A stretch of DNA of 64,000 bases from Burkholderiales bacterium (GTDB lineage: Bacteria > Pseudomonadota > Gammaproteobacteria > Burkholderiales > JAEUOS01): contig JANLTH010000033.1 of NCBI GenBank assembly GCA_031362865.1, forward strand, positions 11,811 through 75,810, in the 5' to 3' direction. Positions 9,211 through 54,566 of the stretch are shown piece after piece. The position numbers were made by a program, and so were the translations under genes. How positions within the stretch are numbered: the stretch's first letter is position 1; each line of letters begins with the position of its first letter. The notes below the pieces were generated by a model, which searched no databases, had not been told where the DNA came from, and was given only the letters and a program-made list of their open reading frames with translations.

Positions 9211-10134
9211 TTAAAAGCGCTGACGGATCAGGAAGAGGGGACGGTTTTGCACTTCTCGGAATATTTTTGCCACGTAAGTGCCGACGATTCCAATGCAAAA
9301 CACTTGCAGCCCAAAGGCAACCAGGCTTACTGAGGTAATTGCTGCAAAGCCTGGCAGATATGCATTCCCCAACCAACGATCAAGAATGATGTACATCGCC
9401 AGCACCAGACCGATAGCGGACATCAACAGCCCACCATATGCAACTATTTGCAAAGGCCGGTTCGTAAAATAAAGCACGCCGTCCAACCCAAGCTTAAGTC
9501 GGCTCCAAAAGGTGTAGGAGGAGCGCTTGTCAATTCGCGGCTGATGCTCTATTTGGATGTATTTCTGCTTGAATCCCAGCCATTGATCCAAGCCTTGGGG
9601 AAATCGGCTCTTCTCCGTCAAGCCATTGTATGCATTTACAAAACGTCGGCTCATGGCACGAAGTGATGAGGTATTTTGCGGCACCGCGAATCCCGTAAGC
9701 AATCGGAAAATCGTGTAGTAGAGCCAAGCAGATGCACGATCAATGAGCGGGCTTTCCCGAACAGAATAAACACCGACGACCAAATCGTAATCATCCGACT
9801 CTAGCACCCGTACGAGCTTCGGGATTTCGTATGGCGGATCTTGCATATCCACATTCATTCGGAGCACGACATCGCCCGCTGCTTCTTGCAAGCCGCACGC
9901 AATCGCAGCGTGCTGTCCGAAGTTTCTAGAAAGATCCATTACTCGGACAAAATGGAATTGCAATTGCGTTTCTCGCAATTGCTCAAGCGACTCATCGCTG
10001 CTTCCATCGTTGATAAAAATCAATTCGAAACCGGATGTTCCTGCCAAAGGAATCATCACCGCCGAAATTTGGTTACAAAATGCTAGCGCAAGATAACCGT
10101 CGTTGTAAATAGGTACGACTATCGAGTACTTCAT
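9211..10134 (-). CDS. GT2 polyprenol-phosphate glycosyltransferase (ArnC/GtrB-like) with C-terminal membrane helices
   Basis: The start at ATG 10134 gives MKYSIVVPIYND. GT2 motifs are present (FINDGSSDES, DLSRNFGQHAAI, NVDMQDPP), with two C-terminal TM segments (LLMSAIGLVLAMYIIL, ITSVSLVAFGLQVFCIGIVG). Confidence 0.8.
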   Translation of the reverse strand: MKYSIVVPIYNDGYLALAFCNQISAVMIPLAGTSGFELIFINDGSSDESLEQLRETQLQFHFVRVMDLSRNFGQHAAIACGLQEAAGDVVLRMNVDMQDPPYEIPKLVRVLESDDYDLVVGVYSVRESPLIDRASAWLYYTIFRLLTGFAVPQNTSSLRAMSRRFVNAYNGLTEKSRFPQGLDQWLGFKQKYIQIEHQPRIDKRSSYTFWSRLKLGLDGVLYFTNRPLQIVAYGGLLMSAIGLVLAMYIILDRWLGNAYLPGFAAITSVSLVAFGLQVFCIGIVGTYVAKIFREVQNRPLFLIRQRF

Positions 10135-46365: not shown

Positions 46366-47024
46366 GCCGCCACCTCCAAATACTCTTTCATGCACTCGCG
46401 CAGCTTGGCCATCGCATAGCGCAGGCGGCTCTTCGCCGTTTCCATGCCGACCGCGCAGGCCGCCGCAATGTCGGCAATGCTCAGGTCGCTCTCTTCTTGC
46501 AACAGAAACGCTTCGCGCTGATTGGCGGGCAGCGCGCCCAAACATTCGAGCATGCGCCGCGCTACCTGGCTACCGTGGGCGCGCGACTCCGGTGCGTCTC
46601 GCGCAGGGGCTGCCACGTGCTCATGCAAGCCATCGCCAGTGCCTTCCGCATCTCCGGTGTCGCCTTCATCAAACGATTTCACTAACCCCAGCGCCACCAC
46701 CTTGTTGCTGCGGAAAAAATCCATCAAACGGTTGTGCGCAATGGTGTAGAGCCAGGTGGTGAACTTGGCTTCGACCACATAACGCTCGCGCGCATTGATC
46801 GCGTTCATCCACACGTCCTGCGCCAACTCATCGGCCTGGGCCGGATTGTGCTGCGGCTGCAACTGGCGTCGCAAATAGCGGTAGATGCCGCCCTTGTGGC
46901 GCTCATACAGCGGGGGAAAGGCGCGCGCGTCGCCATCGGCATAGGCCAACATGAGTTGTTCGTCAGAAAGTGGAGAGTCAAGCGCGTTCACCGGGTGCAG
47001 TGTAGCTAATAACGGTAACGCCAC
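46362..47024 (-). CDS. ECF-type RNA polymerase sigma-70 family factor; start uncertain
   Basis: Region 2 is AFPPLYERHKGGIYRYL..DVWMNAI and FTTWLYTIAHNRLMDFFR. Region 4 is LPANQREAFLLQEESDLSIADIAAACAVGMETAKSRLRYA. Confidence 0.85.
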   Translation of the reverse strand: MALPLLATLHPVNALDSPLSDEQLMLAYADGDARAFPPLYERHKGGIYRYLRRQLQPQHNPAQADELAQDVWMNAINARERYVVEAKFTTWLYTIAHNRLMDFFRSNKVVALGLVKSFDEGDTGDAEGTGDGLHEHVAAPARDAPESRAHGSQVARRMLECLGALPANQREAFLLQEESDLSIADIAAACAVGMETAKSRLRYAMAKLRECMKEYLEVAA

Positions 47025-48003: not shown

Positions 48004-48357
48004 TCACGCCGCCGTCACCCGACTCCGCTCTCGCCGCTGCGGGTCGCGCCGCAACCGAATTTCAACGGTCTGCCCCACCGCTACTGCCGCTTTGACCAAG
48101 GTATCCAACTGGATCGACAGGTTGGCCGGGTCAAGCACCCGGTCCAACTGAGAGCGGCTCGTCGCCATCCGAAGCGCCATCGCCGTCTTCGTTAGGCGAT
48201 CAGCTTGCATGGCATCGTCAAGCTGCTCGGTGAGCGCACGCTTCAAGGCGCGCGCTTGCACTTCTTCGTAGATGCCTTCCTCTTTGAGAAACTCATCAAA
48301 ACTGCCACCTGCGCGGGGGTTAATCACATTGGCGCTTGCAGCGTCACGTTTGACCAT
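48004..48357 (-). CDS. HTH (XRE-like) antitoxin of a type II toxin-antitoxin pair
   Basis: The 117-aa product starts 14 nt inside the upstream toxin gene. A C-terminal HTH-like segment is present (LTKTAMALRMATSRSQLDRVLDP). Confidence 0.65.
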   Translation of the reverse strand: MVKRDAASANVINPRAGGSFDEFLKEEGIYEEVQARALKRALTEQLDDAMQADRLTKTAMALRMATSRSQLDRVLDPANLSIQLDTLVKAAVAVGQTVEIRLRRDPQRRERSRVTAA

Positions 48358-48715
48358 TTTTCCACTCCTTAAGGCGTTTTATCGCCAAGTCGATTTCGCG
48401 CGGATCCGTTTTTTGCGTCTTTTTTACAAAAGCGTGCAGCAACACCATTTCAGATCCGTGGACGGTGAATAGCACGCGCGCGATCCGGTTGCCAATCGTA
48501 CTGCGTACTTCCCAAATATCATCGCGCAGATGATCGACGCGGGGTTTGCCGATGGGCCACTTGTACTGAACATAGGCGATGTCTTCACCGACGATCTGTC
48601 GATCCGCTTTATCAAGCGCCATCAGCATCGCGCGAACCGGTTCATTGCCCGCCGTAGTGCGATAGAAAGACGCAAAAAGCCTTTGGAGGTCAACCATCGA
48701 CGAAGTGTACCGCAT
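48344..48715 (-). CDS. Gp49/HigB-type (RelE/ParE superfamily) toxin
   Basis: The sequence is typical of phage-derived Gp49-like toxins (FYRTTAGNEPVR, KWPIGKPRVDHLRDDIWEVRS, RVLFTVHGSEMVLLHAFVKKTQKT). ATG 48697 is an alternative start. Confidence 0.7.
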   Translation of the reverse strand: MRYTSSMVDLQRLFASFYRTTAGNEPVRAMLMALDKADRQIVGEDIAYVQYKWPIGKPRVDHLRDDIWEVRSTIGNRIARVLFTVHGSEMVLLHAFVKKTQKTDPREIDLAIKRLKEWKNGQT

Positions 48716-48730
48716 AAGGTACTAACTTTC

Positions 48731-48755
48731 GCGCAAATGCCGTAGGCATTTGCGC
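48731..48755. promoter_or_regulatory. Perfect 11-3-11 palindrome GCGCAAATGCC-GTA-GGCATTTGCGC; candidate operator
   Basis: Read directly from the sequence. It lies 16 bp upstream of the toxin ATG (48715) and spans the annotated TTG start (48750) of the divergent Crp-family gene. Confidence 0.45.
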
Positions 48756-49451
48756 CACGCACAGGGCTACCGGATTGGTACACTCCAACGAATGCGCCCA
48801 CCCGCTTTGGTCGAACTCGATTACACCGTTATCACCCAGCCGCGGCTGCGCGCCTTGGCGAAGCGCGGCACTGTGCGCCGCTACCGCAAAGACACCGTGG
48901 TCATGGAAGAGGGTGACCGCGGAGACTTGATGCTGATTATGCTGACCGGGCGGCTGCGTGCCTACTCGGCGAGCCAGCATACCGACCGTGAAGTGACCTA
49001 TGGCGTGTATGGTGCAGGTGATCTTGTGGGTGAAATGTCGCTCGACGGCGGCGCGCGCTCTGCCAGTGTGATTACTCTGGAAACCACCGTGTGCAGCATT
49101 GTCACCCGTGAAACCGTGCGCAGCTATATTGCCGAAGAGCCGGAATTCGCCTTCGACCTGATCGCTCGCGTGATCGAGCGCGCCCGCCGCGCCACGCACA
49201 CTGCACGCAGCTTGGCGCTCACCGATGCTTATGGGCGCTTGAGTGAGCTGCTCACCGGGCTGGCGGTGGTGCAGGGTGATGGCACGAAGCTGATCGAAGA
49301 ACGGCTCACCCATCAAGAGATCGCGAACCGGATTGGTTGCAGTCGCGAGATGGTGAGCCGGTTGATGAAGGATTTGGAGGTGGGGGGCTACTTAGCTAGT
49401 ACGGAGGGGCGACGTTGGTGTGTGGTGAAGTCGCTTCCGGCGCGCTGGTAG
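48750..49451 (+). CDS. Crp/Fnr-family transcriptional regulator (cNMP-binding domain + C-terminal HTH); start uncertain
   Basis: The cNMP-binding core is GDLVGEMSLDGGARSASVITLE. The HTH is THQEIANRIGCSREMVSRLMKDLE. Confidence 0.8.
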   Translation: MRHAQGYRIGTLQRMRPPALVELDYTVITQPRLRALAKRGTVRRYRKDTVVMEEGDRGDLMLIMLTGRLRAYSASQHTDREVTYGVYGAGDLVGEMSLDGGARSASVITLETTVCSIVTRETVRSYIAEEPEFAFDLIARVIERARRATHTARSLALTDAYGRLSELLTGLAVVQGDGTKLIEERLTHQEIANRIGCSREMVSRLMKDLEVGGYLASTEGRRWCVVKSLPARW

Positions 49452-49468: not shown

Positions 49469-51439
49469 TCATGGCAGGTTGCCAACTCCTTGCCGGAGCG
49501 GGTCTCCGGGTGTTGGTGCGCTTACCGGTATCGCGTTCTTGAGCACTTCGCGAACTTTAGCCACTGACGTGCTAGCGCCCACGTTTTTAGCGAGCCAACG
49601 TGTCAAGTTCGCGGCAGCCATGCTCGTACCGGCGAGCCGAACCGTGTCGCAACCGAACGTGCCGACTACCCTTAGTCCGTGCAGCGTCTCTGTTTCCTCT
49701 GTCACTGTGGCGACTTCGGGACTACGAGATGCGCGCGCACCTTCGGAGTGAGTTGCCGATGCCGCGTAAATCGAAACCGTAGCGTCCGATTTGCGATACC
49801 CGCCCGCGACGAGCGTGTGCTGTCCGGTTGCGATGCCGCTGATGCTGCCCTGGCGCTTGATATCTGAAGCCGCGGAATCTCCCGGTGGATTGGGCGTGCG
49901 ATCTAGTAGTTCATAGTCCGGGTCTACCAAATAGGATTGACGGCCATAGACGGGGCGGCCCAGCGTGGGATCGTCACGCTCCACCCAAGCATGGACGGGT
50001 GCGGTAAGTGGTGCGCCGCGATTGGTGAGCGTGACCGTCCACACACCGTGTGGCGCGACTTCACCAGCTTGGCTCTGTGTTGGCGCAACCGCGACCAGTA
50101 CCAACCGACCGCCTATGCCGCGGGAGTTTTGTGCGGGTGCGATGACCGCCGCTAGCCCGTTGTTCGTAGTTGGGTCAGCCAAATACCGGGCGGTTTCGAC
50201 GGAGACGGCGGGGCTGCTGCTGATTCCGCCCGGAGGTGTCAGCCCGACAACAACGTCAGCCGAACCGTCTGGCAGCCAGACTTCAAGAAAACTCGGTGTT
50301 CGGTCGTCTGGCAGCACGTGCCAAGCGAGTTGCTTCGTTTCGTCGCGCGCTAAGTCAAACTGCGCGTGCGCGCGATATTCATGGCTATTTCCCGAAGGCA
50401 GCACGAAAAAAAGCGATCCGCGGCGCTCGACCAATTCGTCAATCGCCCGCTCCAAGATCGACGTGCCGTCGTGCGGGCCAGCCATTTTTCCGAAGCTGAG
50501 GTTGATGATGATTTTGGCGAGCGTCCCTCCGCCCGCGCGCGCTCGCGGCACGTCTGTCCGCTGCAGAATATAACGTGCCGCATCCAAAATCTGTGAGGCG
50601 AGCGATCCCCCCGAGGTATCGCTCACACTTCGTCTCGCGAGTTGAACGCCAATCAGTTCCGCCGACTCCGCCTCGTCGCCGAGGCCCTCCGCCGTTCCGA
50701 CCGCAAGCCCTGCGACGGCTGTGCCGTGTGAGGATCGGTTTCGTGTTCCAGGAATCGATATCTTTTCGTAAACTGCCTCCCAGCTACCCAGCGCGACCTG
50801 AAGTCCATTAAGGGTTTTTCCTGCGAAGTCTCTGCCGTAGCCGAATCCTGATGGCTGGTTTTGAAGTCCATCGGTATCCTGTGACCATAGAAAACTGAAT
50901 CGGGTGTGCTTACTCAGATTGAGCAGGGTATCGTGCCCAAATGCAATCGCATCATCGATGACCCCGACTACCACTTTTGAAAATCTTTCGGTCGGCTTGA
51001 TAGGGCCGGGATCAAAAGGAATTTCCTCGCCGCTCGCAATGGGCAAGCCAACCTCGTAAGCCTCGATAGTGTCCGGTTGCCACTGTAGCTTGTATAAAAA
51101 CTCCGTTTTGACGAATGCGGTGCAAAATGTGGTGCCTTTAAGTTCGTGGCTCGGTTTGCGGTAGACCGACGGAACCCGAATCCAGCCCTTCAAGCCAGAG
51201 AGAGGGTTATCGACCCAGTTGGCAAATTGTTCTGCGGTGACACGAAGCGCCAGAATTACTGCGGTTTCCAATGGCACTTGCCCAACATCGCGAAATTTGG
51301 TTTCATCCGCCCAAGCGAGGTAGGGGTCCTGTCGCACCCCGGTCGTTTCGGTCAGCGCCTGCCCCCAATCCACTAGGGAAGGGCCTTTTTTGAGGTCAGG
51401 GCCGCGCCACGCGGGCAGGGGGGCTTTAGTCTTTTTCAT
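49469..51439 (-). CDS. Subtilase (peptidase S8) without signal peptide, with unknown N-terminal domain of about 170 aa
   Basis: Catalytic-triad contexts are VVVGVIDDAIAFGH (Asp), NRSSHGTAVAGLAVG (His) and RLAGTSMAAANL (Ser). ATG 51439 lies 2 nt after the upstream stop. The N-terminus MKKTKAPLPAWRGPDLKKGPS has no hydrophobic core. Confidence 0.75.
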   Translation of the reverse strand: MKKTKAPLPAWRGPDLKKGPSLVDWGQALTETTGVRQDPYLAWADETKFRDVGQVPLETAVILALRVTAEQFANWVDNPLSGLKGWIRVPSVYRKPSHELKGTTFCTAFVKTEFLYKLQWQPDTIEAYEVGLPIASGEEIPFDPGPIKPTERFSKVVVGVIDDAIAFGHDTLLNLSKHTRFSFLWSQDTDGLQNQPSGFGYGRDFAGKTLNGLQVALGSWEAVYEKISIPGTRNRSSHGTAVAGLAVGTAEGLGDEAESAELIGVQLARRSVSDTSGGSLASQILDAARYILQRTDVPRARAGGGTLAKIIINLSFGKMAGPHDGTSILERAIDELVERRGSLFFVLPSGNSHEYRAHAQFDLARDETKQLAWHVLPDDRTPSFLEVWLPDGSADVVVGLTPPGGISSSPAVSVETARYLADPTTNNGLAAVIAPAQNSRGIGGRLVLVAVAPTQSQAGEVAPHGVWTVTLTNRGAPLTAPVHAWVERDDPTLGRPVYGRQSYLVDPDYELLDRTPNPPGDSAASDIKRQGSISGIATGQHTLVAGGYRKSDATVSIYAASATHSEGARASRSPEVATVTEETETLHGLRVVGTFGCDTVRLAGTSMAAANLTRWLAKNVGASTSVAKVREVLKNAIPVSAPTPGDPLRQGVGNLP

Positions 51440-51441
51440 GG

Positions 51442-52557
51442 CTACCACTCCGCTTTCGCTTTTGTCCAGAGCCATTTCAGTGGTGACTCGTTGTAAGGCA
51501 GGGAAGAAGCTGGAGTCGGATTTTGGGCGGGTTGTCCCACAAACTCAAATCCATGCACCAACTGATAGAAGTCCAATTTTGGATCAAGCACTTCAAAACT
51601 ACGGTCCTGCCAGCCAGTCCCTTGACACAGATACTCTACATAGTCCGCTATCGTGGTGCCCAGCATCGCGCCTGCGACACTGTCCATTGGGTAGTGAACA
51701 CCCGCCACCGTTCTGTTGATAGCAATTCGAGAGGCTTGAGTCAACAATTGATCTCGAAGGGACTTGTGCGCAGCGAGACTACGGGAATCGAGCTTTCTAG
51801 GGTAGGACAGCTTGCTAAGAATGCAAGCCGCCACAAATGCTTCGGTCGCATGCCCGCTGGGCAGGCTGCCGTGCTCGGGTGTTGGCACCATCGGCTGAAT
51901 GTTTGGCGAATAGGCAATCGGGCGAGGTACGTCGAGCGCGTGCTTGAAGCGCATTGCGGCAATCGACGCAATGCCAAGGGAAACATCAATAAGCTCGTTA
52001 GTCCAGCGAGTGCGGGTAGGCTGAAGGTTGGCAACCGCGCTCCAAAATGGCGTCTGCGGAATCAACTGAGCCAAGCATTCGCTGGCGCGGTCTTCACGAA
52101 TTTTTGCCCAGCTCTCGACAAGAGCGAATTGTGATTTGCAGTCTGTATTCTTTGGCTTTGTCATGCGAATGATCGGGTGCTTTTGATAGCGGCCTTGGGA
52201 TTTGGGCTTTGGTGCGTCGAGTGAAATATGGGAAAGCGTGGCAACGCGGCTAGCCTTATCGGTTTCGAAGATCATCCGGGACTGCGCTTCGTACAGAAAA
52301 ATATGCTGGCGGATCGCCGGTTCCCAGCCCTTCATCCGCTCAGGGTTATCGAAGTAATCCTTGGGTGAAAGCAGCGCCCCAGCAGGAGTTGCAGGCACTG
52401 TACCCCCCCGACTCTTAATCAGCGCATCCGTCAGCAACGGCACACCAGGCATTCCGCCGCCCCCACCGTTGCCGCCCCCACCCCAGCCCGCCCAGCCAGC
52501 CCATCCTGCCCACCCAGCCCACCCTGCCCAGCCTGCCCAACCCGCCCATCCAGCCAT
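51442..52557 (-). CDS. Soluble PAP2 / vanadium-haloperoxidase-fold protein with N-terminal (AGW)8-Gly-rich tail
   Basis: All three PAP2 motifs are present: KHALDVPRP (Kx6RP), LPSGHA (PSGH) and NRTVAGVHYPMD (S/N-Rx5Hx3D). No TM helix or signal peptide was found. The AAGGAG Shine-Dalgarno sequence lies 6 nt upstream of ATG 52557. Confidence 0.7.
   Translation of the reverse strand: MAGWAGWAGWAGWAGWAGWAGWAGWGGGGNGGGGGMPGVPLLTDALIKSRGGTVPATPAGALLSPKDYFDNPERMKGWEPAIRQHIFLYEAQSRMIFETDKASRVATLSHISLDAPKPKSQGRYQKHPIIRMTKPKNTDCKSQFALVESWAKIREDRASECLAQLIPQTPFWSAVANLQPTRTRWTNELIDVSLGIASIAAMRFKHALDVPRPIAYSPNIQPMVPTPEHGSLPSGHATEAFVAACILSKLSYPRKLDSRSLAAHKSLRDQLLTQASRIAINRTVAGVHYPMDSVAGAMLGTTIADYVEYLCQGTGWQDRSFEVLDPKLDFYQLVHGFEFVGQPAQNPTPASSLPYNESPLKWLWTKAKAEW
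52453..52554 (-). repeat. Coding low-complexity repeat: eight consecutive Ala-Gly-Trp triplets followed by GGGGNGGGGG
   Basis: The decoded codons are GCT GGA TGG / GCG GGT TGG / GCA GGC TGG / GCA GGG TGG / GCT GGG TGG / GCA GGA TGG / GCT GGC TGG / GCG GGC TGG. The period is 9 nt with varied synonymous codons. Confidence 0.9.
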
Positions 52558-52593
52558 GATGCTCTCCTTGTTGTTGAGTACTGCTGTTCGTAA

Positions 52594-54384
52594 CTACTTG
52601 CGTGGTATTCCAGCTGCCAAAAATGCGTCTGCGAAGCGCTGGGCAATGCCGAAGGCCTTGCCGGGCGTATTTTCCAAGAACGAGGACACCGTAAACCCAG
52701 GAACGAATTCGAGTACGCGCTTCGCAAACTCGCTTGCCTGCGGAATCTGGCCGTGCAGCGCATGCGCCAGTGTCAAAGTCCGATAAGTTGACACGTGGTT
52801 GCGGTTGGCTTTGAGTGAGCGGTCGCCCAGCTCGATGGCGCGCTCGTACTTGCCCGCCGTGAGGGCAGCGGAAGCCGCGAGTGCGTCATAGAAGTAGCGC
52901 AGCGGGTCCAGTGGCGAGAGTTGCAGCGCGCGCTCGGTTGCCTCGGTTGCCTCAGCCCCGTGGTCGGAAAAAGCATGCGTAGTGCCCAGAAAGAGCCAAG
53001 CCAGCGACTCGTTCGGGTTGGCCGCAAGAGCGGCTTCGTGGCGCGCCTTGGCCTTGTCCATGTCGCGCATCAAATTGCTTTGCACCAGGCCGTCGATGGT
53101 CAGTGCAAGGGAGCAATCGGCATCGAGGTCGAGCGCGCGGTGCGTCAAATCTTGCGCGTAGGCGGTTTGCCGCTTGGGGTCATCTGCCCAGCCTTGGGTA
53201 ACAAAGAGTACATACCACTTGGCAAGCCAGGCGTAGGGAGTGGGCAGCCGTTTGTGCCGCTCAGTCAGGTGATCGAGCAGGGCGCGTGAGCGTTCAAAGT
53301 CCGTGCGGCTGGTGCGGTGCATCAAGTTGATGCCGCCCAACAGCAGCGAGTAGCTGTCGAGTGTTGGCAGCGGTTTGGTTTTCGCCGCCTTCACTTCGTG
53401 GTCAAGAATGTGGCGATGCGCTTTTGCGGCGATGATGCCGCAGGTCTCGCTCTCGAGTTGGAGCAAGTCGTCCACCGACGTGCTGGTGCGCTCCACCCAC
53501 ACCACTTCATTGCTGCGCAACTCGGAAAGCTCAGCTGATACCAATACGCGGCCTCCGGTGACCACATAACTCCCGCTAAGCGCGTAGTTTGCGCCGAGCC
53601 GCGAATCCACCTCGCCGGCGCTAGAAGGTCGATCACGAAAACCGGTGGTCGAGAGCCGTGAAATCACCCGCAGATCGTGGCTGCGCGCCAGCTTGTCAAT
53701 TATTCCGTCCGCGATCAGGTCACCCACAGCAAGTGTTTCCCGATCCGCCTGCCGCGATGCAAACGGGATGACTGCTATAGTTGGCGCGAGCGCAGCAGCG
53801 GCACGTTCGTGCGCTGGAACAATCGGGAACTTGCCAACCGCCCCCACCCGGTAACTGCGCACTGGCTCCGCGAAATGCTTGACGAAACACTCCCCCAAAT
53901 CCTCAATATCCGCATCCAAATCCGCCGTCAGCGCATCGCGCACCTCCGGCGACACCACAATTTCATGCGGGCCGGCCAGGGTCATCAGGCGCGCGGCAAG
54001 GTTGACCCCTTTACCGTACATGTCATGCGCATCCGCCACTACTGTGGTGGTGTGCGCGCCCACGCGCAGCGCGAGCGGTTCCGCGCTTGCAAACTTTGCG
54101 TTCTCGTCTTGCATCATCGCCTGCAATCCAAGCGCGGCCTGCACGGCTGGGCGGGCACTGGCGAATTCGAGCATCACGCCGTCTCCGGTGCTTTTGACCA
54201 AGCGACCGCCGTGCGCGGGCAACAGTTCGTCCTCGATGCGTGCCACCAGTTGCAGCCAGCGTTGAATCGTTTGGTCTTCATGTTCCTCCATCAACCGCAC
54301 CGACTCAACCAAGTCGGCAAACACGATGGTTTTGACCGGGCGCGTAGCACCGTGGAGCCAATCATCTATGGCGGTAGAAGGCAT
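52594..54384 (-). CDS. Class III adenylate/guanylate cyclase with C-terminal TPR-like helical-repeat region
   Basis: Cyclase motifs are TIVFADLVESV, LVKSTGDGVMLEF and YGKGVNLAARL. A middle beta-rich domain follows (IAVIPFASRQ..), then TPR-like repeats to the C-terminus. ATG 54384 is preferred. The ORF extends to a GTG at 54462, adding 26 low-complexity codons. Confidence 0.8.
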   Translation of the reverse strand: MPSTAIDDWLHGATRPVKTIVFADLVESVRLMEEHEDQTIQRWLQLVARIEDELLPAHGGRLVKSTGDGVMLEFASARPAVQAALGLQAMMQDENAKFASAEPLALRVGAHTTTVVADAHDMYGKGVNLAARLMTLAGPHEIVVSPEVRDALTADLDADIEDLGECFVKHFAEPVRSYRVGAVGKFPIVPAHERAAAALAPTIAVIPFASRQADRETLAVGDLIADGIIDKLARSHDLRVISRLSTTGFRDRPSSAGEVDSRLGANYALSGSYVVTGGRVLVSAELSELRSNEVVWVERTSTSVDDLLQLESETCGIIAAKAHRHILDHEVKAAKTKPLPTLDSYSLLLGGINLMHRTSRTDFERSRALLDHLTERHKRLPTPYAWLAKWYVLFVTQGWADDPKRQTAYAQDLTHRALDLDADCSLALTIDGLVQSNLMRDMDKAKARHEAALAANPNESLAWLFLGTTHAFSDHGAEATEATERALQLSPLDPLRYFYDALAASAALTAGKYERAIELGDRSLKANRNHVSTYRTLTLAHALHGQIPQASEFAKRVLEFVPGFTVSSFLENTPGKAFGIAQRFADAFLAAGIPRK

Positions 54385-54566
54385 CTTTGACCAATTTTCT
54401 GTTTCTGAACATCCACAAACTTGTGGAGAGCTGGGCGATGTGCGCTGCGGTGCTGGCGACACCGAGGTGAATAGTTCACAAAACTAGCCCCTATTTTTAC
54501 CAGCTTTGGCGCGCCTCACCGCCCTAACGTTGGCCTTCAGCACGGTCAACCTTTTGGGAGATAACT

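Follow-up and report, generated by a model that had tools for sequence, protein, structure and literature searches.

Three adjacent genes in a 64,000-nucleotide (nt) stretch of a Burkholderiales genome (GenBank assembly GCA_031362865.1, contig JANLTH010000033.1, positions 11,811 to 75,810; hereafter, the window) encode a class III nucleotide cyclase joined to a tetratricopeptide repeat (TPR) region (gene 1), a soluble PAP2-fold phosphatase with a repetitive N-terminal tail (PAP2), and a subtilase of family S8 that resembles the Csp proteases (S8). Judging from comparisons across genomes and metagenomes, this triad is a real, widely conserved, and apparently undescribed bacterial module. The same comparisons indicate that the unit of the repeat array is held identical within each locus by strong selection, yet has changed between lineages, and that it co-varies specifically with the TPR domain encoded just upstream. 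We put the chance at roughly 45% that the triad is a private signalling module with a peptide code, in which the repeat tail on PAP2 would be matched to a TPR receptor and handled by a Csp-like processing protease. The features of the triad in the window are as follows (aa, amino acids).

49469..51439, minus strand: Csp-like subtilase, 656 aa; Pfam PF00082 at aa 155-353, E=1e-10
51442..52557, minus strand: soluble PAP2-fold phosphatase with an N-terminal repeat tail, 371 aa; Pfam PF01569 at aa 193-304, E=5e-14
52396..52482, minus strand: glycine-rich spacer (aa 26-35) and conserved junction segment LLTDALIKSRGGTV, a candidate processing site, from the family consensus
52483..52554, minus strand: (AGW)8 array, eight perfect Ala-Gly-Trp units written in eight distinct 9-nt codon strings
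52564..52569, minus strand: Shine-Dalgarno sequence AAGGAG of the PAP2 gene, by direct reading of the sequence
52594..54384, minus strand: gene 1, with class III cyclase, HilA-like middle region, and TPR sensor; Pfam PF00211 and TPR, NCBIfam PRK12370
52597..53385, minus strand: TPR region, aa 360-622, the proposed receptor for the repeat tail; Pfam TPR at aa 466-588 and covariation with the unit
53878..54330, minus strand: cyclase catalytic domain, aa 45-195; PF00211, E=1.5e-15

The three minus-strand open reading frames (ORFs) are tightly packed. The 36-nt gap between gene 1 and PAP2 contains AAGGAG, 6 nt ahead of the ATG at 52557, and the TAG of PAP2 (51442-51444) is followed after 2 nt by the ATG of S8 at 51439. 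We re-read these coordinates, and all were correct in the original prediction, which had been made from the DNA of the window. The gene 1 frame is indeed open from 52594 to 54462, but the most likely start is not at its limit: the ATG at 54384, which gives a protein of 596 aa, is favored by the homologues and by an identical Logan contig, where gene 1 is called at 596 aa, PAP2 at 371 aa, and S8 at 656 aa. Residue numbers for gene 1 nevertheless follow the GTG at 54462, the frame limit.

The original prediction took the three genes for an operon, and they are co-conserved and syntenic in two collections of loci. For the genome set, we scanned one genome per species, which gave more than 570 PAP2 relatives, and examined the best 80 of these with 10-kb flanks; the metagenome set is an independent collection of 80 contigs. 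In the genome set, a homologue of gene 1 lies immediately upstream of PAP2 and on the same strand at 68 of the 70 loci with room for it, and a homologue of S8 lies immediately downstream, also on the same strand, at 71 of 71. The corresponding counts for the metagenomic contigs are 38/39 and 58/58. Median intergenic gaps are 33 nt between gene 1 and PAP2 and 8 nt between PAP2 and S8, and the stop of PAP2 often overlaps the start of S8. The adjacency of the triad is far above chance and is kept in about 150 independent loci. Because order and strand agree in both sets, the three genes probably form one functional unit.

The module is also widespread. When used as a protein query, PAP2 retrieved 374 relatives, the closest just 46% identical, and a PAP2 profile matched 989 50%-identity clusters at E<=1e-30 among 1.84 billion cluster representatives. 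Hosts include Burkholderiales (Polaromonas, Hydrogenophaga, Ramlibacter, Variovorax, and Rhodoferax), Alphaproteobacteria (Microvirga, Bradyrhizobium, many roseobacters, Thalassobaculum, and Roseibium), and a few others, such as a Myxococcota metagenome-assembled genome and a Chromatiales symbiont. The module is present in 35 plasmid or chromid records, 21 of them from Phaeobacter. The original prediction did not recognize the combination as a described operon type, and our searches agree: full-text literature searches turned up no description of the triad, and Pfam, NCBIfam, and PADLOC hold no family specific to any of its parts. PADLOC gave only generic PycC matches to the cyclase and nothing for PAP2 or S8, and scans with Rfam, NCBIfam, and PADLOC returned no specific family or RNA for the locus.

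The (AGW)8 tail had been recorded in the original prediction, but as a detail; comparison shows it to be the most informative part of the triad. Once PAP2 frames are extended upstream, 78 of the 80 genome loci start with a short unit repeated perfectly in tandem. The exceptions are L019, which is cut by a contig edge, and L080, whose array is degenerate. In the metagenome set, arrays were found at 72 loci. The unit of the genome arrays is 3 residues long at 65 loci, 4 at 12, and 6 at 1, and is present in 3 to 18 copies (median 9). More than 40 distinct units occur, and they depend on the lineage. Examples are SGW, GGV, GTM, GAA, GSM, GGF, SGI, GLS, GGY, GGL, SSL, NAL, GAS, NSY, SSY, NSF, GAY, AGY, KGH, RAQ, DAN, NGE, EGF, and GGGL; Hydrogenophaga alone has SGG[I/A/M/V/L]. 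Array leaders vary by clade as well, ending in GPE in many alphaproteobacteria and reading M-S-x-L in many betaproteobacteria. Gene calling and assembly sometimes lose the tail, which hides the feature: the public gene calls P0019 and P0101 begin PAP2 after the array (L081, 9861-10001; L082, 9841-10001), and the assembly of L012 has a run of N within the array (about 9800-10000).

At the DNA level, the arrays are much less regular. Tandem Repeats Finder describes the array of the window (52482-52555) as period 9 with just 84% DNA matches. Across the 78 genome arrays, codons that differ from the modal codon of their array are synonymous in 1002 cases and non-synonymous in 23; the 72 metagenome arrays have 979 and 36 such codons, respectively. 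This large excess of synonymous changes, together with units made of whole codons, argues that the arrays are translated and that strong protein-level selection keeps their units identical. Single arrays mix TCN with AGY codons for serine, or CGN with AGR codons for arginine. Codon use is more even within the arrays than elsewhere in these operons (GGC makes up 0.38 of glycine codons versus 0.55), and codons are reused less between adjacent units than under random order (0.365 versus 0.414). These patterns hint at selection against DNA repetitiveness. DNA-identical arrays are found at L064, L066, and L056 and look like recent expansions. We also considered a phase-variation switch and dropped it, since every unit comprises whole codons and the repetition is imperfect at the DNA level.

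Four Phaeobacter plasmid loci (L083-L086) show the same pattern. P. gallaeciensis DSM 26640 and two strains of P. inhibens, which have the winged-helix version of gene 1 described below, share the array (NSF)6, and P. piscinae has (NSF)5; synonymous changes in the array separate these records while the peptide stays constant. Among distant members (the group of P0300, P0294, P0321, and P0364), longer units occur: five copies of QGGFS, the 7-residue GGGSGI[S/L/A], and SYMG[AT][HQ]. At least one of them, P0364, lacks an array.

We considered whether the tail might be a structural low-complexity segment, that is, a flexible spacer, a polyglycine-II or polyproline-II rod, or a sticker-spacer element, whose unit drifts and is not read by the TPR domain. 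Most units combine a single hydrophobic or aromatic residue with a background of Gly, Ser, or Ala, the structure prediction leaves the tail disordered, and a period of 3 suits a helix with three residues per turn. However, free drift would not hold every unit identical amid saturated synonymous change. Units with a period of at least 4 and polar units (DAN, RAQ, NGE, and KGH) do not fit a single structure, and the covariation with the TPR domain, described next, is seen in both sets. This explanation is distinctly unlikely. A narrower idea, a collagen-like or polyglycine-II structure, was dropped since it does not fit units of period 4 or more or those that are free of Gly.

Covariation between the unit and the TPR domain was tested by regressing TPR identity on PAP2-core identity and a same-unit term, across all pairs, with 2000 label permutations. 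Sharing a unit raised TPR identity by 0.097 in the genome set (p<0.001; 0/2000 permutations) and by 0.062 in the independent metagenome set (p<0.0005; 0/2000). Among close pairs in the metagenome set, TPR identity is 0.88-0.95 if the unit is the same; most pairs with different units are at 0.61-0.75, and one is at 0.83. By region, the same-unit effect is +0.07 to +0.13 in the thirds of the TPR region and +0.054 in the HilA-like middle region. It is absent from the N-terminal output domain (p=0.23) and from S8 (-0.007, p=0.80; individual parts, p=0.47-0.92). In residues 40-69 of PAP2, which are the closest to the array, the effect is marginal (+0.016, p=0.09).

Three Polaromonas loci (L014, L022, and L034, with units GGY, GGL, and GGV) provide a specific example. 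Their PAP2 cores are 87-95% identical and their S8 proteins 88-92% identical, while their TPR regions are 63-74% identical. At the DNA level, identity declines steadily along the gene 1 homologue; it is as low as about 50% only in the 3' half of the TPR gene and in the array. Beyond the array it rises again, to about 80% in the PAP2 core and to the mid-90s inside S8. The flanks of L014 and L022 beyond the triad are 80-99% identical. In contrast, the Microvirga pair L047 and L069, which share the unit GGV, show no comparable dip over the TPR gene and array.

Within the TPR region, the columns most strongly linked to the unit are 459, 462, 463, 465, 491, 494, 497, 524, 527, and 531, by statistics that are uncorrected for phylogeny. 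For the most part they fall within motif positions 4-14, the helix-A half, of the 34-aa TPR motifs across aa 452-553; in TPR domains, helix A lines the groove. Among natural proteins of solved structure, the closest in sequence to the TPR region is PEX5 (E~5e-9), whose TPR groove reads a tripeptide, the C-terminal PTS1. Unlike the protein studied here, PEX5 is a eukaryotic import receptor, and the similarity may reflect generic TPR sequence.

The class III cyclase, PAP2, and S8 assignments made in the original prediction are upheld by Pfam matches and by catalytic residues that are kept across homologues. From these residues, both PAP2 and S8 look active. PAP2 has the motifs K205-x6-R212-P213, P233-S-G-H236, and N281-R282-x5-H288-x3-D292, with Asn in place of Ser in motif 3. 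K205, R212, P213, P233, S234, H236, R282, H288, and D292 are invariant in 76/76 homologues, and G235 is present in 75/76. The AlphaFold2 model of PAP2 has a predicted local distance difference test (pLDDT) score of 76; the tail is disordered (pLDDT <40 at aa 1-39), and there is an extra N-terminal subdomain at aa 72-135. Foldseek matched this model best to soluble class A acid phosphatases (7f17, 9qcj, 2a96, and 1d2t), with TM-scores of 0.6-0.7 normalised to the target. Like PhoN, PhoC, and EB-NSAP in this class, PAP2 combines the fold with K-x6-RP, PSGH, and R-x5-H-x3-D; unlike them, it has no signal peptide and has the extra N-terminal subdomain and the repeat tail. Known class A acid phosphatases are periplasmic. 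Vanadium haloperoxidases fit the model far worse than the acid phosphatases do, and some PAP2 homologues also match the vanadium-chloroperoxidase helical-bundle family PF22778. A vanadium haloperoxidase that acts on Trp was considered and dropped, given the H-x3-D of motif 3, the fit to the phosphatase fold, and the many units without Trp.

Right after the variable tail and a short spacer, the family-wide consensus ALIxxRxGIVG marks the junction with the PAP2 core, and this junction is a candidate cleavage site. The protein is probably cytoplasmic, as are its partners: a hydropathy scan (19-residue windows) found no transmembrane-like or signal-like segment in the three window proteins, with maximum Kyte-Doolittle values of 1.06-1.22, which for PAP2 and S8 agrees with the original prediction. 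The few family members that exceed the threshold do so because of hydrophobic arrays, internal segments, or over-extended ORF starts.

The proposed agent of cleavage is S8. In its AlphaFold2 model (predicted TM-score, 0.88), a prodomain (aa ~24-135) precedes the catalytic domain, and a beta-rich, jellyroll-like insert lies at aa ~356-505. Among the homologues, D162, H238, and the oxyanion-hole residue N351 are each present in 69/69, and S606 is present in 68/69. The top sequence match of S8 is the clostridial NCBIfam family CspBA. In the structure search, the S8 model aligned with CspA, CspC, and CspB (9pr9, 6mw4, and 4i0w) over about 640 columns (E~1e-22 to 1e-24), so that prodomain, subtilase domain, and beta-rich insert all correspond (TM-scores of 0.70-0.75 normalised to the target). 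The triad of S8 is intact, as in CspB, whereas CspA and CspC are pseudoproteases. A Csp protease is a dedicated processing enzyme of one partner protein (CspB cleaves pro-SleC), and the model suggests that S8 likewise has the architecture of a dedicated processing protease. The differences are that S8 is just 13-16% identical to the Csp proteins, that it occurs in Proteobacteria and in no spore context, and that it would act on a PAP2 enzyme instead of a cortex hydrolase. An attempt to guess a cleavage motif by comparing the linker between the S8 prodomain and catalytic domain with the tail leaders was dropped, as the linker is too variable.

A protease of this type might do nothing more than activate a zymogen: the tail would be a pro-region that inhibits or localises PAP2 until S8 removes it, the TPR protein would merely regulate the operon, by transcription or through a cyclic nucleotide monophosphate (cNMP), and the covariation would be a by-product of linkage. 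This would fit the Csp-like fold of S8, the tight translational coupling of PAP2 and S8, the PAP2 catalytic residues that are kept family-wide, and the position of the TPR 3' end, which adjoins the array on the DNA. However, it does not explain why units are identical within arrays (about 2000 synonymous versus about 60 non-synonymous changes) or why they differ between lineages. Nor does it explain why covariation is strong in the TPR region and nearly absent in PAP2 residues 40-69, although the latter are nearer to the array. We consider the zymogen explanation unlikely.

Gene 1 links the putative receptor to an output domain. Its aa 212-583 align to the part of the HilA/EilA regulators that follows the DNA-binding domain (NCBIfam PRK12370), and its cyclase domain, by alignment, carries the metal-binding Asp pair, the substrate Lys, and the transition-state Asn and Arg of class III cyclases. 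The residues D50, K90, D94, R133, N154, and R158 are present in the window and are kept in 42 canonical homologues; position 151, the second substrate-specifying position, is K in the window and T, H, or R elsewhere. This D-K-D-R-N-R pattern is found in 42 of the 67 complete gene 1 homologues. In roseobacters, Thalassobaculum, and others, gene 1 homologues keep the middle and TPR regions, and PAP2 and S8 persist, but the N terminus is a Trans_reg_C winged helix, a SARP-type BTAD domain, or a winged helix with a degenerate cyclase-like segment. Because the cyclase is replaced while TPR, PAP2, and S8 remain, it appears to be an exchangeable output of the TPR sensor and not the core of the system. 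Two further observations concern the cyclase itself. In the gene 1 homologues of Microvirga (L039, L047, and L069), Ser replaces the transition-state Asn (pattern DKDRSR), and these cyclases may be inactive or altered; L010 and L032 have a second, shorter cyclase-like match just upstream of gene 1.

In the window, the triad lies between two regulatory genes, which together with a Gp49/helix-turn-helix (HTH) pair were reported in the original prediction; their Pfam matches agree with it.

48750..49451, plus strand: Crp/Fnr-family regulator with a cNMP-binding domain, convergent on the S8 gene; Pfam PF00027, PF13545, and PF00325 (cNMP_binding and HTH_Crp_2)
54567..55328, plus strand: LuxR/GerE-type regulator, divergent from gene 1; Pfam PF00196

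The Crp ORF ends at 49451 and the stop of S8 begins at 49469, which leaves 17 bp between them. A Crp homologue lies within 10 kb at 22 of the 42 loci with a canonical cyclase, as compared to 1 of the 25 other loci. At 18 of these 22 Crp-positive loci, a LuxR homologue is present too, usually beyond Crp and not upstream of gene 1. The Crp homologues that adjoin the triad in Burkholderiales loci are 46-61% identical. The original prediction proposed that Crp reads the cyclase signal. The enrichment of Crp at cyclase-type loci supports Crp as the reader of the cyclase product, but we did not find a conserved Crp site of the type TGTGA-N6-TCACA upstream of the operons. The arrangement resembles CyaD1/CyaD2/CyaK-Clr of Sinorhizobium, in which a class III cyclase also lies beside a Crp-family regulator with an intact cNMP-binding domain. 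It differs in that the sensor is a cytoplasmic TPR region instead of CHASE2, in that the cyclase is replaceable, and in that no conserved Crp box was found. Separately, the window has a near-palindrome, TGTGAACTATTCACC (TGTGA-N5-TCAC, with a 5-nt spacer), at 54473-54487, about 90 nt upstream of the ATG at 54384. It has no counterpart upstream of the other scannable Crp-linked loci, and we did not use it as evidence.

Together, the Crp association and the swappable cyclase put cNMP after the TPR sensor in the pathway and not ahead of PAP2 and S8. This bears on another proposal of the original prediction, namely, that the triad is a conflict or defence module in which a nucleotide signal from the cyclase activates PAP2 and S8 as effectors, by the logic of Pycsar and CBASS. 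The cyclase domain does have weak PycC matches (E=9.5e-10, 36 bits), a toxin-antitoxin pair lies next door in the window, and a hypervariable cassette could suggest an arms race. However, PAP2 and S8 have neither a cNMP-binding nor any other nucleotide-sensing domain (only PF01569 and PF00082) and no PADLOC match. The cyclase is dispensable, having been swapped for DNA-binding domains in many lineages, whereas Pycsar and CBASS depend on theirs. None of 50,697 phage records contains a relative of the module, and the genes outside the triad vary by locus and belong to ordinary metabolism or transport rather than to defence islands. Neither the control of PAP2 and S8 by a cyclic nucleotide nor the defence framing is supported; this is the least supported explanation, and we regard it as very improbable.

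If the triad is a peptide-code module, it might work as follows. PAP2 would carry at its N terminus a disordered tail in which one unit of 3-4 residues is repeated without change, (AGW)8 in the window. The upstream TPR domain would be its cognate receptor, binding either the intact tail or fragments of it, with a specificity that is re-set in each lineage. The Csp-like subtilase, which is translationally coupled to PAP2 and seems indifferent to the unit, would process PAP2, probably with a cut within or close to the conserved junction that follows the tail, much as CspB processes pro-SleC. Cutting the tail would release or destroy the ligand and might activate the phosphatase. Occupancy of the TPR domain would then set the activity of the N-terminal output domain, if signalling runs in that direction. 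In the window, the class III cyclase would produce cNMP for the adjacent Crp-like regulator, together with the LuxR-type regulator; in other lineages, the winged-helix domain would bind DNA directly. A related possibility is that the periodic ligand is read in register by the periodic TPR receptor, with one unit per TPR motif.

In logic, the nearest known systems are Csp-type zymogen processing, tandem pheromone precursors cut by Kex2, and the RRNPP group (Rap-Phr, NprR-NprX, PlcR-PapR, PrgX, and ComR-XIP). In the RRNPP group, a soluble receptor reads a short, genetically encoded peptide through a TPR-type domain and controls an N-terminal output domain; gene 1 also joins TPR repeats to an N-terminal output domain. 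Phr peptides are matured by subtilisin-family proteases. RRNPP receptors and their peptides are encoded by adjacent genes and co-diversify into specificity groups (PMC2441798 and PMC5131902). Receptor and peptide appear to co-diversify in our module as well (+0.097 and +0.062 in the two sets, and the Polaromonas cassette). The likeness is one of architecture, and there are clear differences. The hosts of the module are Proteobacteria, not Firmicutes; the candidate ligand is an N-terminal tandem array on a 371-aa enzyme without a signal peptide, not a small secreted pro-peptide; and a class III cyclase or an OmpR-type winged helix takes the place of the XRE-type HTH or phosphatase output.

The parallel raises the question of whether the units are secreted pheromones. 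The protease would chop the array, and the tri- or tetrapeptides would be exported, re-imported, and sensed by the TPR protein as in RRNPP, with the units as pherotypes. This would be the first peptide-code communication in Proteobacteria: the subtilase would cut the array into many copies of a lineage-specific peptide that serves as a pheromone or marks kin, and the TPR receptor, evolving along with it, would drive cAMP or cGMP synthesis or transcription. Many identical copies per precursor, and units that diversify along with the TPR region, do resemble pherotype systems, of which PlcR-PapR is an example (PMC2441798). In the frame set by the GPE and MSxL leaders, most units end in a hydrophobic or aromatic residue. 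Such a residue is a typical P1 of subtilisins. There are eukaryotic precedents for tandem identical copies with S8-type processing: yeast alpha-factor, whose tandem precursor is cut by the S8 protease Kex2, as well as fungal dikaritin precursors and neuropeptide polyproteins. Those are secretory proteins with dibasic spacer sites, whereas the units of the module abut directly and sit on an enzyme. Several findings do not fit secretion. Signal peptides and transmembrane segments are absent from all three window proteins, and no conserved transporter adjoins the triad at the loci examined. S8 does not co-vary with the unit, and some units end in Q, N, E, or H/K. The Phaeobacter records examined are all NSF, so there is no within-species pherotype variation there. 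We think that a secreted pheromone is unlikely.

For the peptide-code module itself, a number of results count against it. First, significance was reached just by the all-pairs regression and its replication in the metagenome set. A nearest-neighbour test of same-unit pairs found no TPR advantage (13/32 versus 14/32), a permutation restricted to close pairs gave p=0.09, and a mutual-information scan, which set S8, TPR, and PAP2 columns against the class of the variable residue, showed nothing above the level of phylogeny except within the array; the column statistics are uncorrected for phylogeny. Second, the 3' end of the TPR region is about 35 nt from the array, and recombination of a linked cassette could yield covariation without any contact. 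The near absence of the effect in PAP2 residues 40-69 speaks against pure linkage but does not exclude it. Third, the lack of unit covariation in S8 implies that S8 does not read the variable residue. Fourth, the picture of one unit per TPR is hard to reconcile with the units of 4-7 residues, with the degenerate array of L080, or with P0364, which has no array. Finally, the invariant active site of PAP2 has no role in the model, the cytoplasmic location comes solely from the hydropathy scan, and no conserved Crp box was found upstream of the operons.

If the peptide-code reading is correct, then about 1000 50%-identity clusters would represent an unrecognised type of signalling in soil, freshwater, and marine Proteobacteria, including the tractable Phaeobacter. 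An enzyme would carry the ligand in the form of a perfectly homogeneous peptide array, and the matching TPR sensor would diversify fast and have interchangeable outputs, cyclase or DNA-binding. It would also be the first class of ligand for the common orphan cyclase-TPR and winged-helix-TPR proteins of Alpha- and Betaproteobacteria, and the lineage-specific pairs of peptide and TPR could serve synthetic biology as orthogonal parts. For sequence evolution, the arrays are a case of protein repeats that are held identical while the DNA is scrambled.

Other features of the window are outside the triad. A scan for promoters and terminators found one promoter-like site, as compared to 1.9 expected, and no convincing terminator between the triad genes. 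Beside the Crp gene, at 48004-48715 on the minus strand, lie two overlapping genes, one for a toxin like Gp49/HigB (123 aa) and one for an HTH protein that resembles antitoxins (117 aa); the pair is also on the identical Logan contig and lies outside the conserved module at other loci. Further away, positions 10400-41500 hold a long run of plus-strand genes with a G+C content of 0.52-0.55, versus about 0.62 downstream, and a positive GC skew. Its products include a Polysacc_synt flippase, a UDP-GlcNAc 2-epimerase, a nucleotidyl transferase, an aminotransferase, a GT4 glycosyltransferase, and an NAD epimerase. This run is probably an O-antigen or exopolysaccharide cluster and was possibly acquired horizontally. 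Finally, a minus-strand ORF for a sigma-70 factor of the extracytoplasmic function (ECF) type (46362..47024; sigma70-ECF pattern in the ORF translation) overlaps the start of a 404-aa low-complexity ORF rich in Ala and Pro (45331..46545), which could be its anti-sigma-like partner.

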